Translations under genes and position numbers: made by a program | The notes under the pieces: generated by a model | The model's database searches: none | What the model saw: only the letters and a program-made list of their open reading frames with translations | Told to the model about the DNA's origin: nothing | In this document: one piece after another, positions 37,560 through 44,993 of the stretch | Layout: each line of letters begins with the position of its first letter | How positions within the stretch are numbered: position 1 is the stretch's first letter | Assembly (NCBI GenBank): GCA_965367815.1 | Contig: CBDUKN010000011.1 | Coordinates: 14,180 to 78,179, forward strand | DNA: 64,000 nt | Origin: an uncultured Thermoprotei archaeon | GTDB taxonomy: Archaea > Thermoproteota > Thermoprotei > Thermofilales > B15-G2 | Reading direction: 5' to 3'

Positions 37560-38012
37560 TTGAATATATTGTGGGGTCAAATATATTTTGATACTAGCTC
37601 CGTATTACTCTGTTTAATATGTTCTTTTTCTCAAAGTCTTATACTTATTAGTATTTTTGAAGAGAAAAGCGTGAAAGTAAAGAGTGTTGGTTTAGGGGAG
37701 ATACCTTATCGGGACTATAGAAAAGTAAGGCTTGCTGTAATAGAAGCGATGGGTGACCTAATTAAAAAGTCTAGAGGAAGCTGTGTTACGTTCACTTGCA
37801 AGAAACTTGCTACAATAGCTGGTTTACCGTCGCAGCCAGTTCTTTTAACAGTTATAAGAAGTATACTAGATGAGCTATGCGATAAAGGACTTATCACAAG
37901 ATACAGCAGATCTAGTCACGGAATAAAATATATGGCGACTAAGGAAAGTCCTATATGGGTTGCTTTTAAACACGGAGATCTAGAAACTCTTAGCAAAATA
38001 GTAGAGCTCTAG
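37560..38012 (+). CDS. Small wHTH DNA-binding protein, paralog 1 (likely start GTG 37671)
   Basis: Aligns with the next ORF: G.CV.F...+A.+AGLP...SP+W. Confidence 0.7.
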   Translation: MNILWGQIYFDTSSVLLCLICSFSQSLILISIFEEKSVKVKSVGLGEIPYRDYRKVRLAVIEAMGDLIKKSRGSCVTFTCKKLATIAGLPSQPVLLTVIRSILDELCDKGLITRYSRSSHGIKYMATKESPIWVAFKHGDLETLSKIVEL

Positions 38013-38021
38013 GGGCGGAGA

Positions 38022-38354
38022 ATGTCTGAGAAAAATAAAAGAAGTGAAGTATATGAGAAGGCGGTATGTGATGCACTTGTAGAGCTAATTAGTAAGGCTA
38101 AAGGCACATGTGTCTCCTTTGAGAGCATAGATATAGCTAAACTAGCGGGACTACCCATTAATGCTTATACTCTTTACTCTATTAAAAAGGTTCTATATAA
38201 ACTCATGAGAGCAGGAATGGTGAGAAGACTTAGAAGAAAAAAGGGACGTATATTTGTTGTTAATTGTGATTCACCACTATGGTCCGCTTGTAAAATAAAA
38301 GATAGAGAGATTGTTTTCGAGATTATATCTGAGTGTATAAAAAATAAAGATTAA
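38022..38354 (+). CDS. Small wHTH DNA-binding protein, paralog 2
   Basis: GTCVSF..DIAKLAGLP...KLMRAGMV...SPLW. Confidence 0.7.
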   Translation: MSEKNKRSEVYEKAVCDALVELISKAKGTCVSFESIDIAKLAGLPINAYTLYSIKKVLYKLMRAGMVRRLRRKKGRIFVVNCDSPLWSACKIKDREIVFEIISECIKNKD

Positions 38355-40384: not shown

Positions 40385-40521
40385 TCATTCAGTATTCTAT
40401 AGAGGTGTAATAAATATATACGGTCTTAGCAATGATCGATTGATTCTTGGAAAAATATAAGTAGACAAGACGAATTAAAGATTATATTTTTAGACATGAA
40501 ATGATATGAGGGGGGCTGGGG

Positions 40522-42762
40522 GTGCAGGATATAGTAAAAATATTGAGAATTATAGGTAATGAAGTTAGAATGCAAATAATTAAACTATTATATAATGAAG
40601 GAGAGTTATCTTATGGCGAATTAATGCAGAAGATCGGTATCGCAAGAGATAAAAGTGGAAAATTTGGTTATCATTTAAGACAATTAGTAGACAATAGAAT
40701 AATAGAAATAGATAGAAACACAGGAAAATATAGATTAACTGATCTAGGATTTAAGATATTTGATTTATTTAAAGAATTTAGGGAGTCTTATCTTGCTCTA
40801 CAAAGTAGAGACATGCTTGTTTCGACATCAAAATATGTAATGGAGTACTTTGATAAAAATAAAATAATAGATAGTCTAGTCAGAGAGACTGGTATCAAAA
40901 GGTCGCTGGCTAAGGAAGTAGCAGTTGATGTAGAGGAGAAACTTAAGAATGCAAATCTACGCTATGTTTCAACAAACTTAATAAGAGAACTAGTAATTGC
41001 TACGCTACTTGAGAAAGGATGTGAAGAATATATAAAGAAATATAGTAGATACGGTTTACCTGTCTACGATGTAAAAAATATATTTGAATCTTATGATTTA
41101 GTAAGACCTTACACTCCCAATGTTTTGCTAAGAATACTTGGGAGGTCGATAATCGAGGCTTATACAATGTCTCAGCTAATACCTCCTAGTGTTCTTGTTG
41201 CGCATTTAAACGGATATATACACATAGCGAACAGCAGTGATTGGTTTATTGGGGTTGAAGACATTAGACATGATTTATGTCTATGTTTGTCGAAAGAAAA
41301 TTTTATGGGAAATAAATTTTTTCCCGAGATAATCATACCTGCTCCGAAAAACTTTAGAGAGGCTCTTTTCTCAATGTATATTACATTAAATTATTTTAAA
41401 GATTATTATTATATTTCTCAAATCATAGACAACTTTAATTTTATTTTGTCACCTTTTATAAGTAAAGGTGATCAAGACAAAGTATCATTGGAATTACTCT
41501 ATTTTACTAAAATACTCAACATAAATAACTTAAGTTATAGAAACTATAGACCCGTAGCACTAGCTTGTGCGTTTTCTTTACCTAAAGAATACGAAGATAT
41601 TAAGATTAAATACAAAAATACAGGTTTATTCTCCTTTGTAGACTACATGGATGAAGCGCTACTATTAGCAAAAACATTGTTGAATGTTTTAGCAAATGTT
41701 AATAGCAAGTATCCTTCAAAAACTCCCATAGTAGTGCTCAAAGTAAATGACAGAGTCCTAAGGGATGATGATCTTCTAAGTACTATATATAAGGCGCTTG
41801 CATCAAGAGTTCCAATAACACTTGTTAAGGAAGAAAACTATGTTTCTACTTCTAGTGAAGGTATACAGCTCGAAAAACCTAAGGAAGTACCGATTCTGCC
41901 AGCTTACGGGATAATTTCCTCTATTGCTGTTAATTTGCCTTTAATAATGCTTGAAAGTCATACGGAAGAAAAGTTTTTTGACAAAATATATAACGTAGCA
42001 GATTCTGTGGCGCTGGCATTTAACAGCAAACATAGCTTTATTAAAGATATTGTAGCTAAAAGAAGGCTAAAACCGTTAACAGAGTATATACTTAAAGGAG
42101 ACTATTACTATAGGTGGGAATATTCGCGTTATTTAATTTCCTTTATAGGAGTATACTTTACAGCCTTTTTGCTAGCGGGTAACGATAACAAAGATCACAT
42201 CATATCAACTGCTAGAAAACTAGTAAAAGAACTGATCAAGGTATTTAGAGATGCTGTTAAAAACGAAGAGTATACAGTAGAGTTTTCTTTTATGTGTAAC
42301 GATAGAAACTTTGTAAGAGTAGTCAGTATTATTAGAAACGTACTAAGAAAAAAGAACATTCCAATAAAAAATCTAGAGCAATATTTCTCTCCACTAACAT
42401 TGATGCCCTACAATATAGCGGGGTCACTCGAAGAATACTTAAAGATTTATCATAGCGAACCATTTAGAGAACTTAAAGGAGGAGTTTTTCTACGGGTAGA
42501 TCCTATATACTTCACTAAAGACGACTTAGTTACTCTGCTAGACTACTTGCTTAAATACGAGAGGCCCTTAATGTTATCTCTGGACTATACTTATTGTCCA
42601 CGATGCCGAATAATCCTAGATGGTTTTCATCAATTTTGTCCAAAATGTTTAGCAATGATACCAATGGGAGCTCACTTTTCTAGAGTTTTTTCGGTGTATG
42701 AGCCAATAACCTATGTTCACAGCTTCTATCGAGATGAATACTTGAGCCGAAAAAATATATAG
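40522..42762 (+). CDS. ArsR-type wHTH + ATP-cone + NrdD-like (class III RNR) protein, apparently catalytically inactive
   Basis: N-terminal wHTH (SGKFGYHLRQL), ATP cone (FDKNKIIDSLVRETG..IRELV), GLPVYDV, AHLNGYIHI, CPRC..CPKC; SRVFSVY at the glycyl-radical motif. Confidence 0.8.
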   Translation: MQDIVKILRIIGNEVRMQIIKLLYNEGELSYGELMQKIGIARDKSGKFGYHLRQLVDNRIIEIDRNTGKYRLTDLGFKIFDLFKEFRESYLALQSRDMLVSTSKYVMEYFDKNKIIDSLVRETGIKRSLAKEVAVDVEEKLKNANLRYVSTNLIRELVIATLLEKGCEEYIKKYSRYGLPVYDVKNIFESYDLVRPYTPNVLLRILGRSIIEAYTMSQLIPPSVLVAHLNGYIHIANSSDWFIGVEDIRHDLCLCLSKENFMGNKFFPEIIIPAPKNFREALFSMYITLNYFKDYYYISQIIDNFNFILSPFISKGDQDKVSLELLYFTKILNINNLSYRNYRPVALACAFSLPKEYEDIKIKYKNTGLFSFVDYMDEALLLAKTLLNVLANVNSKYPSKTPIVVLKVNDRVLRDDDLLSTIYKALASRVPITLVKEENYVSTSSEGIQLEKPKEVPILPAYGIISSIAVNLPLIMLESHTEEKFFDKIYNVADSVALAFNSKHSFIKDIVAKRRLKPLTEYILKGDYYYRWEYSRYLISFIGVYFTAFLLAGNDNKDHIISTARKLVKELIKVFRDAVKNEEYTVEFSFMCNDRNFVRVVSIIRNVLRKKNIPIKNLEQYFSPLTLMPYNIAGSLEEYLKIYHSEPFRELKGGVFLRVDPIYFTKDDLVTLLDYLLKYERPLMLSLDYTYCPRCRIILDGFHQFCPKCLAMIPMGAHFSRVFSVYEPITYVHSFYRDEYLSRKNI

Positions 42763-43689: not shown

Positions 43690-44319
43690 ATGGCTGAAAA
43701 GAATATACATGAAAATACCAGTAAATTTAGGAAAATAAACGTATATAAAAAAGCTATACGGTGTCTTGGAATAGCTGAAAGCTTTAGAAAAGAGAACAAA
43801 TATGCAGTATTAGTTGGAGTAGTTATGAGAAGTGACTTTCTAATAGATGGAGTCTACATAGAGAGAGTAACTGTAGGAGGAATGGATTCTACGAAAGCTG
43901 TTATAAGAATGTATTACAATACTGGGAGAAATGACATTAACTTTATTTTAATAAATGGTGTAATTATAAGCTACTACAACATAATAGATTTGAGCGAAGT
44001 ATTTAACTCAGTAAAAATTCCTGTAATATCAGTAACCTACAGAGAATCAAAAGGATTAGAGGAAATAATTAGAAAGAATTTTCCGGACTGGAAAGAAAGA
44101 GTAGAAGTTTACAGGAAAAATGGAAAACGAGTACCATTACCTCTTAGAACAGGACATATAGTCTATGTGAGATATTTTGGTGTTGACTTTAGAGAATGCA
44201 TGCATTTAGTTAATAAATTTACTGTAGAGGGAAAGCATCCAGAGCCAATTAAGGTGGCAAAAATGATTGCTAGAAGCATTAATAAGTATGTGTGTTGTAG
44301 TAGGGGGAGACTGCTGTGA
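43690..44319 (+). CDS. DUF99 (UPF0215; endonuclease V-like) protein
   Basis: LGIAESF, IDG, TVGGMDST, YNIID, PEPI. Confidence 0.88.
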   Translation: MAEKNIHENTSKFRKINVYKKAIRCLGIAESFRKENKYAVLVGVVMRSDFLIDGVYIERVTVGGMDSTKAVIRMYYNTGRNDINFILINGVIISYYNIIDLSEVFNSVKIPVISVTYRESKGLEEIIRKNFPDWKERVEVYRKNGKRVPLPLRTGHIVYVRYFGVDFRECMHLVNKFTVEGKHPEPIKVAKMIARSINKYVCCSRGRLL

Positions 44320-44993
44320 AGGAGCACGAGAAAGTGTACATATTGATGAAAATATCGCTAAAGGGAGGAATTTTTTCTCCGGTAAAAATAAGCACTAGTG
44401 AGCTAGCTAAGTATATCAAATGTTCTCAGCAGTCTGCGTCTCGTAAGTTAATAGAGTTAGAGCAAGAAAACTTAATTATTAGAAGAAAATCCATTGAGGG
44501 AACATATATTATGATAAGTGAAAAAGGTTTAAGTTTACTTTATAGCTACTATTTAAAGTTTAAGAAAATTTTCGAGAAAATTAATGAAGTAGTAATACTG
44601 AGAGGCACTGCTGTATCAGGATTAGGTGAAGGAGCCTACTACGTCTCATTACCCTTCTACTATAAGCAGTTTAAAGAAAAATTAGGATTTGAGCCTTATC
44701 CGGGGACCTTTAATGTTAAACTAGATAGTGATAGTATAAAAAGAAAAAATATTTTGAATTATATTAGCGGAATAAAGATAAGTGAACACTATAATGGTAA
44801 GAGAAAATACGGAGGAGCCAAGTGCTTTTATGCTATAGTAAATGATAAAGTTAAAGGAGCATTAATTCTTATAGAGAGAACACATCATGGGCCTGAGATA
44901 ATCGAGATAATAGCCCCCCTGTGTATTAGGAAAGTCCTCAATATTAAAGACGGAGATCCGGTAGTAGTAAAGGTTTACTTAGGACTATACTAA
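44316..44993 (+). CDS. ribK: wHTH + CTP-dependent riboflavin kinase (RbkR-type)
   Basis: SQQSASRKL; [19 protein letters not shown]. Confidence 0.92.

Follow-up and report, generated by a model that had tools for sequence, protein, structure and literature searches.

Architecture of the gene product

We analysed a stretch of 64,000 nucleotides from an uncultured archaeon of the order Thermofilales (GenBank assembly GCA_965367815.1, contig CBDUKN010000011.1, positions 14,180 to 78,179 of the forward strand; this whole stretch is called the window below), and in it a gene whose product joins an N-terminal winged helix-turn-helix (wHTH) domain and an ATP-cone to the body of NrdD, the class III ribonucleotide reductase (RNR) (Table 1). 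A reading-frame check of the window found the open reading frame (ORF) uninterrupted by stops or frameshifts, and Pfam recognises all three domains above cut-off: DUF7347 with 44.2 bits, the ATP-cone (PF03477) with 38.0 bits against a cut-off of 25.8, and NRDD with 67.8 bits. The NrdD equivalog TIGR02487 was not reached (62.2 bits against a cut-off of 326.35), the curated ArsR profiles stayed below their cut-offs (PF01022, 15.3 against 22 bits; NF033788, 27.4 against 55 bits), and phmmer with the whole query retrieved no PDB entries other than wHTH proteins. The original prediction, made from the letters and a list of ORFs, had named the same order of wHTH, ATP-cone, NrdD-like body and C-terminal four-cysteine (Cys4) site, and the Pfam matches and alignments bear it out.

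Table 1. Features of the dead-NrdD gene and of the region upstream of it, in positions of the window.
Feature	Position	Strand	Remarks
Weak candidate site for self-regulation, between the dead-NrdD gene and the divergent trmJ-like gene	40386..40403		Rank 16 and 44 of 1505 (two matrices); not the best match with the third
Weaker candidate site, 25 nt ahead of the GTG start	40479..40496		Rank 280 of 1505, not significant
wHTH / ATP-cone / catalytically dead NrdD gene	40522..42762	+	746-aa ORF, GTG start
wHTH, DUF7347, ArsR/SmtB superfamily, aa 8-80	40543..40761	+	9/9 family key positions present
ATP-cone, VRTS type, aa 100-177	40819..41052	+	17/19 family positions present; S101 and I171 in place of conserved Arg
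Class III RNR barrel and C-terminal domain, aa 196-744	41107..42753	+	Fold retained
Degenerate substrate site: HIAN for HxHD (aa 234-237); D247 at the first catalytic Cys	41221..41262	+	Alignment to true NrdD
Finger-loop position: S445/E446 where true NrdD has a CC pair	41854..41859	+	Alignment
Zinc site CxxC...CxxC (C692, C695, C706, C709), intact	42595..42648	+	Alignment
RVFSV at the former glycyl-radical loop, with Ser for the radical Gly	42682..42696	+	Alignment

Loss of the catalytic residues

Catalytic columns were assigned by aligning the query to the true NrdD of its own genome; phmmer tied that NrdD, and hmmsearch the family profile, to solved structures, the chains used being the NrdDs of T4, T. 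maritima, P. copri and S. thermophilus. Query and true NrdD share 19% identity. Where the true enzyme has the glycyl-radical motif RITGY, the Gly column of the query holds S724; the finger-loop YQCC is replaced by STSSE and the cysteine of PFC by an aspartate, and there is no Cys anywhere in aa 350-591. The substrate motifs have degenerated as well, with HIAN for HxHD, P196/T198 for NxN and D594 for the Glu of TPAE (the roles of HxHD and of the NxN flap as NrdD substrate motifs are given in the portion of PMC11226230 used here). All four zinc cysteines are retained. The original prediction had read from the letters a motif without the glycyl Gly and no Cys at either expected position, and had suggested an alignment to T4 and T. 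maritima NrdD as a check; both absences persist once the alignment is anchored to structures.

A census of homologues, likewise suggested then, found the loss to be family-wide. None of 130 wHTH-bearing representatives has R[IVLP]xGY, and in an alignment of 258 family rows (181 non-redundant at 70%), on which all family conservation counts below are based, the catalytic columns are scrambled: the loop holds CC in 0 rows and RxxGY occurs in 1, no Cys is among the common residues at either catalytic column, and a Cys near the finger loop together with a Gly at the radical column is found in 4 rows. Two rows binned as true NrdD, P0006 and P0007, are dead copies without a wHTH, so that the true-NrdD counts stand at 20/22. 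One Thermofilales member (L098:4242-6515, minus strand) has RVLGY and, close to the finger loop, a Cys; its cone is degenerate, however, and HxHD is missing. The lineage of the query carries C592 at the former TPAE loop, a position that is Cys in 17 of the 258 rows.

An old family under purifying selection

A word-indexed homologue search returned only 7 proteins; it was a full HMMER scan that revealed the family, with 1016 clusters at E<=0.001, of which 108 reach E<=1e-30, and with a wHTH at the N-terminus in 130 of the best 150 matches. By source names, members occur in Thermoprotei, Thermofilum (of one order with the window's organism), Bathyarchaeia, Nitrosarchaeum, Nitrosopumilus, Nitrosotenuis and Culexarchaeum, as well as in the Asgard groups Jord-/Freyr-, Atabey-, Baldr- and Lokiarchaeota. 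Databases label them either 'ArsR regulator' or 'anaerobic ribonucleoside-triphosphate reductase'; the latter label, where it stands in aerobic ammonia oxidisers and Asgard genomes, misleads inferences about metabolism and oxygen tolerance, and the dead-enzyme reading corrects the annotation of family members.

In trees computed without the wHTH domain, a branch with full support separates the family from all other rows (family rows 36 of 51, SH-like approximate likelihood ratio test 100; 14 of 21 rows in a second tree, 100/100), with the Thermofilales members on long branches. A grouping of the query with the NrdD of its own genome was rejected by the approximately unbiased test (p-AU 3e-43). 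On this phylogenetic evidence the family is one old clade, with an apparent ancestry in common with the archaeal NrdDs that have a VRTS-type cone. The 746-aa protein belongs to it: a single chain comprises wHTH, cone and NrdD body, RxxGY is absent, and the trees place the query inside the clade. Among 42 genomes with a weak or no first match, full-length proteins of the family type were recovered in lineage f36 (three of four genomes) and divergent copies in two Thermofilum-type genomes; the remaining genomes of this set gave NrdD-body-only, wHTH-only or no matches, and the family was not found there.

Neutral evolution of the gene, which would have meant simple decay, was not seen. Against a sister strain represented among public contigs, 36 coding differences comprise 25 silent and 11 missense changes (among the 40 of 79 rows listed), which gives a ratio of nonsynonymous to synonymous polymorphism (pN/pS) of 0.12 among the differences listed, or of 0.22 with transition sites only, and the frame is free of indels across four sister-strain assemblies. 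Ratios of nonsynonymous to synonymous substitution rates (dN/dS) were 0.016-0.084 in four Nitrosopumilaceae-type pairs, lowest in the N-terminal 190 aa, and 0.15 in one Thermofilales pair, two further Thermofilales pairs being saturated. Purifying selection and the uninterrupted frame together uphold the earlier impression of a maintained gene.

Other relatives were encountered along with the family. NrdD-like proteins with neither RxxGY nor wHTH include P0006, P0007, P0065, P0094, P0096, P0110, P0111, P0125, P0134 and P0156, of which P0006 and P0007 form a long branch of their own in the tree; a gene of the same description lies directly downstream of a family member (L040:4179-6083). Further dead-NrdD lineages may therefore exist. 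Genomes without the family encode, at L229-L233, proteins of 390-435 aa with the same DUF7347 wHTH, the C-terminal part of which has no Pfam match at E<=0.001 (three of three scanned).

Conservation and predicted structure

Conservation is concentrated in the two N-terminal domains, with columns conserved at 80% or more making up 28 of 78 in the cone, 13 of 73 in the wHTH and 10 of 450 in the barrel. The cone columns V/R/F/E/R/E/Y/R/R are present in 221-246 rows, and the four zinc Cys are kept in 218-221. A protein whose cone is kept best and its wHTH next shows the pattern that would be expected of a sensor joined to a DNA-binding domain. The VRTS cone type is common to the family and one archaeal NrdD clade. 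Bathyarchaeia and Nitrosopumilaceae keep a median of 19 of the 19 scored cone positions, and the query's own lineage keeps 17 in three of three sequences. The other Thermofilales copies have a median of 9/9 wHTH positions, and the zinc site is present in 20 of 20.

An AlphaFold model built from a 109-row family alignment reached a predicted local distance difference test score of 91.7 and a predicted template modelling score of 0.85. The leading Foldseek matches of this model were all class III RNRs (E 2e-20), and VIA superposition on class III RNR gave a best Z of 30.2, with a root-mean-square deviation (rmsd) of 3.0 A over 510 aligned residues; NrdD structures compared with the model gave Z 28-30 and rmsd of about 3 A over 465-540 residues. 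In other words, the model of the 746-aa protein has the ten-stranded alpha/beta barrel of the RNR fold. Modelled separately, aa 1-95 form a wHTH of the ArsR/SmtB type that resembles BigR and CadC (template modelling score 0.69-0.77), and the family wHTH profile matches HlyU (E 1e-8). In the full model, the wHTH is joined to the cone by a single long helix, H74-96. The dimer-helix region is conserved in the family alignment, and by homology to NrdD we infer that the dead-NrdD protein forms a dimer.

RNR genes and gene neighbourhoods

The genome to which the window belongs is 99% complete. The presumable active RNR, which the original prediction had left to be located, is encoded by a true nrdD on contig C4 with PFC, YQCC, TPAE and RITGY; the NrdG2 match above cut-off lies on contig C5, in agreement with the statement that no nrdG adjoins the gene. 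This genome has no match to class I or class II RNR, nor to NrdR (TIGR00244) at E<=1e-10. The true nrdD is immediately preceded by a glutaredoxin-like CxxC gene (L001:763-1059, genome G000, contig C4), an arrangement that many Bathyarchaeia have too, and the product of this CxxC gene is the probable electron donor of that NrdD. Among 78 genomes, NrdR was found in 5, all of one family (f21) that also carries the dead-NrdD gene, so that a canonical nrdR coexists with it in 5/5 genomes of that family; in locus L097, nrdR lies directly upstream of nrdD, and that promoter does not have the palindrome described below. In five of five complete Nitrosopumilaceae-type genomes there is no NrdD or NrdG above cut-off, and the family member is the sole NrdD match.

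Outside Thermofilales, the gene tends to lie near genes of nucleotide metabolism. In 20 mixed loci from the whole phylum, an RNR-type gene was next to the family member or one gene away in 8 (nrdD above cut-off in 3, an NrdD-like gene below cut-off in 1 and nrdJ in 4), pyrB, pyrI, pyrH or pyrE lay within 3 ORFs in 7, and nrd or pyr was present in 13. Further Nitrosopumilaceae-type loci had nrdJ directly downstream in 14 of 15, the fifteenth stopping at a contig edge. In 53 of 80 Bathyarchaeia loci, a count of which much is inherited synteny, nrdD or pyr lay within 3 ORFs (44 pyr, 15 nrdD-like), often with the family gene directly upstream of nrdD; the baseline for the same neighbourhood is 32 of 2361 ORFs (1.4%) in the window's genome. 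The Thermofilales setting, that of the window included, consists of trmJ, rpl10e and rps26e-like genes. In N. maritimus, Nmar_1628 adjoins the nrdJ gene Nmar_1627 (as stated in part of PMC4303638), and the part of bioRxiv 10.1101/2021.04.01.436977 that concerns it lists Nmar_1628 as a 'transcriptional regulator' detected in the proteome and less abundant in the oxygen-producing mode; judging by gene order, Nmar_1628 is probably the N. maritimus member of the family.

Some further features of these loci recur. An ornithine carbamoyltransferase gene stands beside the family gene in L054, L056, L057 and L099, and an aspartate carbamoyltransferase gene in other lineages; in L042 and in four loci of Bathyarchaeia, a candidate site lies between the family gene and divergent transketolase genes; and upstream of the gene, most of the Nitrosopumilaceae-type loci (L051-L072) have a conserved ORF that is about 55 codons long and encodes two CxxC motifs.

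A candidate operator at RNR promoters

A de novo search for symmetric motifs upstream of RNR units was carried out in three lineages. It yielded RTAYARAATTYTRTAY in Bathyarchaeia (16 promoters), TATCWA-W5-TTAAAY in lineage f18 (13 of 13 promoters; in the sole locus seen there, L047, the family gene is not beside nrdD) and GTGTCAA-N5-TTGA(A/C)C in Nitrosopumilaceae, which in one register have in common the 16-bp palindrome R-T-n-n-A-W6-T-n-n-A-Y. The distance from the end of the site to a TATA-like box is 13-15 nt in 13 of 16 Bathyarchaeia promoters and 14-18 nt in 13 of 13 f18 promoters; in an unconstrained search of 17 Nitrosopumilaceae promoters, 8 have the box downstream of the 21-mer at +26 and 3 have it at +37. 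The resulting spacings of about 15, 27 or 38 bp differ by steps of about one helical turn. For the cross-validation, the Nitrosopumilaceae sites were picked anew with a TATA-like box required 26-40 nt away, so that the spacing is circular in that set.

A first shuffle control was dropped, since shuffling destroys homology and is not a fair test; leave-out and held-out tests were used instead. When each lineage in turn was left out, the sites of Bathyarchaeia and f18 were recovered from the other two lineages (symmetric matrix, p 9e-9 and p 3e-4), the best match being the promoter's own site in 10 of 16 and 9 of 13 cases, respectively. Among 288 other promoters in Bathyarchaeia loci, the top two were two nrdD promoters that had been kept out of training, and scores of at least 8 were reached by 8 of 65 family-gene promoters, 5 of 32 pyrB promoters and 8 of 182 others. 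Held-out RNR promoters beat their shuffles at p<0.02 in 8 of 13 cases, three of these being close kin of training rows. Used alone, the Nitrosopumilaceae matrix misses the nucleotide promoters in L038-L057 outside its own lineage.

In the window's genome, the upstream region of nrdD ranks 52, 52 and 25 of 1505 upstream regions with three matrices, and that of the dead-NrdD gene itself 16, 44 and 280. Thermofilales nrdD promoters compared with 11 promoters of genomes without the gene gave p 0.03 and 0.10. A 20-nt stretch that is identical upstream of nrdD in the window's genome and in G001 lies within redoxin coding sequence, and was not counted as support.

A proposed nucleotide-sensing regulator and its alternatives

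Considering neighbourhood, conservation, selection and candidate operator together, we read the family as dimeric, nucleotide-sensing transcription factors for RNR genes, and give this reading a probability of about 0.65 as a description of the present copy; pyrimidine genes and the gene itself are probably targets as well. The original prediction of a pseudo-enzyme turned DNA-binding regulator is thereby supported at the level of the family, and we are less sure of nucleotide sensing and of an RNR target for this particular copy. Its comparison with NrdR also suits the proposed job; where it falters is the mode of action, as a candidate site upstream of the B recognition element (BRE) and TATA box suits activation no less than repression.

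The mechanism that we propose is modelled on S. thermophilus NrdD, whose cones, as reported in PMC12662201, form dimers in the presence of dATP and move about 40 A apart when ATP is bound. The dead NrdD body would supply the dimer and hold the two cones; ATP or dATP in the cones would move them as in a true NrdD; this movement would reposition or space the two attached wHTH heads on the 16-bp site, with the ATP state leading to activation and the dATP state to release. Archaeal activators bind just upstream of the BRE and TATA box and in phase with it. Because the site lies outside these elements and in helical phase with them, we lean towards activation: the promoter layout suggests an activator rather than a repressor at about 55:45. 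The nucleotide switch may be weakened in this Thermofilales copy. The most extended form of the proposal is an ancient TACK-Asgard activator, in which the cones, and perhaps the specificity site for deoxynucleoside triphosphates (dNTPs), drive two wHTH heads on a TATA-phased 16-bp site, and which acts as the main deoxynucleotide and pyrimidine regulator in Bathyarchaeia, ammonia oxidisers and Asgard archaea, this copy included; as a whole it is tentative, and we consider it doubtful.

Several observations weigh against a nucleotide-sensing RNR regulator, above all in Thermofilales. The window gene is divergent from a trmJ-like gene, with no nrd or pyr gene adjoining, and a piece of nrdD was nearby in just 1 of 20 other Thermofilales loci, two genes away; loci L073-L077, from other lineages, have nucleotide-gene neighbours in 0 of 5, and 4 of the 20 mixed loci had been picked for an NrdD match already seen next door. 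Because kin are not independent, the p-values are overstated and the synteny is partly inherited. As to the cone, the positions held by S101 and I171 in the query are Arg in 237 and 227 of the 258 rows, and the other 20 Thermofilales copies keep just 4-10 of the 19 scored positions, as if the sensor domain were decaying while the DNA head and zinc site persist. The phosphate-contacting Lys-Arg pair of S. thermophilus NrdD, given as K19 and R20 in the part of PMC12662201 cited above, corresponds to Thr-Ser in the family, and because of this replacement nucleotide binding by the VRTS-type cone is only assumed. The operator has weaknesses of its own: the Nitrosopumilaceae motif fails cross-validation (p 0.24-0.32, with the own site as best match in 5 of 16), 5 of 13 held-out promoters fail, and two of the passing sites overlap the TATA box. 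In the window's genome, the redoxin-nrdD operon promoter, pyrB, pyrE, pyrH and nrdG do not score, and the Nitrosopumilaceae matrix alone misses the nucleotide promoters; no motif emerged de novo from 20 Thermofilales nrdD promoters, most of which belong to another NrdD type. Finally, the protein and the palindrome are linked by co-occurrence alone.

Much of this could also mean that the Thermofilales copies have been repurposed into a DNA-binding zinc protein that no longer reads ATP or dATP and no longer controls RNR genes. The cone that is degenerate in 20 of 20 other Thermofilales beside a persisting wHTH and zinc site, the long branches, the housekeeping neighbourhood, the motif-less nrdD promoters and the two replaced arginines of this copy all fit. 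We nevertheless think repurposing unlikely, as the query's lineage keeps 17 of 19 cone positions in all its sequences, the window's genome has the same type of NrdD, with upstream redoxin, as the operator-bearing lineages, and two of three matrices place the regions upstream of nrdD and of the gene itself among the top 1-3.5%. The zinc site kept where the cone is lost would also suit a transcription factor that senses redox state or zinc through its Cys4 site, as might befit the control of an oxygen-sensitive enzyme, with a purely structural cone; the nearest solved wHTH domains are of the BigR and HlyU types, and the drop of Nmar_1628 in the oxygen-producing mode points the same way. This is improbable in view of the roughly 38 of 258 rows without a Cys4 site (some of them truncated), the cone as the best conserved part, the lack of any Cys in the query wHTH, and the structural role ascribed to the zinc finger of NrdD in the pertinent part of PMC9669993.

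The original prediction had also entertained a regulatory partner of the true NrdD. A non-catalytic subunit that tunes or tethers the enzyme, its wHTH being secondary, would account for the conserved dimer-helix region, for the frequent position directly upstream of nrdD in Bathyarchaeia and for the true NrdD in the window's genome. This idea is weakened because the gene persists, and is under strong selection, in the five of five Nitrosopumilaceae-type genomes without NrdD or NrdG above cut-off; there it stands beside the class II gene nrdJ, and the wHTH is conserved everywhere, so that we regard a partner role as more improbable still. At the far end lies the idea of a paralogue in decay, or of an enzyme that is still active through unconventional radical chemistry, for which one could cite the 19% identity to the genome's NrdD, the four rows with both a Cys near the loop and a Gly at the radical column (one of them with RVLGY) and C592. 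The pN/pS of 0.12, the indel-free frame in four assemblies, the age of the clade, the lack of any conserved Cys, Gly or substrate motif in the family and the rarity of Cys at the position of C592 make it the least credible of all.

Relation to known systems

Judged by motifs, profile scores and domain order, the protein is neither an NrdD nor an NrdR; it would be NrdR-like in its proposed job and is NrtR-like in its build. With NrdD (TIGR02487, PF13597; PDB 9d3x, 8p23, 4u3e, 1h78) it shares the ATP-cone, the ten-stranded barrel, the Cys4 zinc site and its ancestry, but it lacks the glycyl Gly, the finger-loop Cys, HxHD, NxN and the TPAE Glu, has an added N-terminal wHTH, scores 62 rather than 326 bits, and belongs to a family that is retained in genomes without NrdG. 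NrdR (TIGR00244), as covered in parts of PMC9110341, resembles the family in combining an ATP-cone with a DNA-binding domain, in palindromes at RNR promoters and in probable self-regulation; it differs as a small protein with an N-terminal Zn ribbon, whereas family members begin with a wHTH and, at 600-770 aa, include an entire dead enzyme. According to the same parts of PMC9110341, where NrdR is also called rare in archaea, the boxes of NrdR frequently lie over the polymerase site, while the candidate site of the family lies upstream of BRE and TATA. NrdR was not found in 73 of 78 genomes, and the family is present in lineages of this kind.

NrtR likewise combines an enzyme-derived effector domain with a helix-turn-helix (HTH), was annotated as an enzyme and found through co-localisation with pathway genes, and has a motif that varies between lineages; it differs in enzyme fold, domain order, ligand (ADP-ribose) and pathway, and is bacterial (all from portions of PMC2330246). 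Finally, query aa 2-95 resemble the ArsR/SmtB regulators HlyU, BigR and CadC in sequence and fold. Those, however, are small stand-alone metal or redox sensors, whereas the query domain is devoid of Cys and is followed in the same chain by another 650 residues.

In a literature search that covered the main texts of open papers, no description of the family turned up, though arCOG or RNRdb tables may contain a label for it; nor do the passages of PMC9669993 and PMC4390871 on HTH, inactive or pseudo forms mention such a family. If our reading is right, an RNR pseudo-enzyme would here serve as a transcription factor, a case not found described in that search. The family has cultured hosts, and its site and ligand are predicted, which makes it a concrete candidate for matching archaeal RNR transcription to dNTP pools. 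New here are the Thermofilales member, the cross-lineage candidate site with held-out tests, the activator reading and the decay of the cone.

Other genes in the window

A second protein that joins an enzyme to a wHTH is encoded 1.5 kb away, at 44316-44993 (plus strand): a fusion of a wHTH with a CTP-dependent riboflavin kinase, which we take to be the known archaeal regulator RbkR. Two short tandem ORFs with a winged-helix look, at 37560-38012 and 38022-38354 (plus strand), have no useful Pfam match, and comparable tandem pairs seem to be present in the Thermofilum loci L108, L110-L112 and L117.

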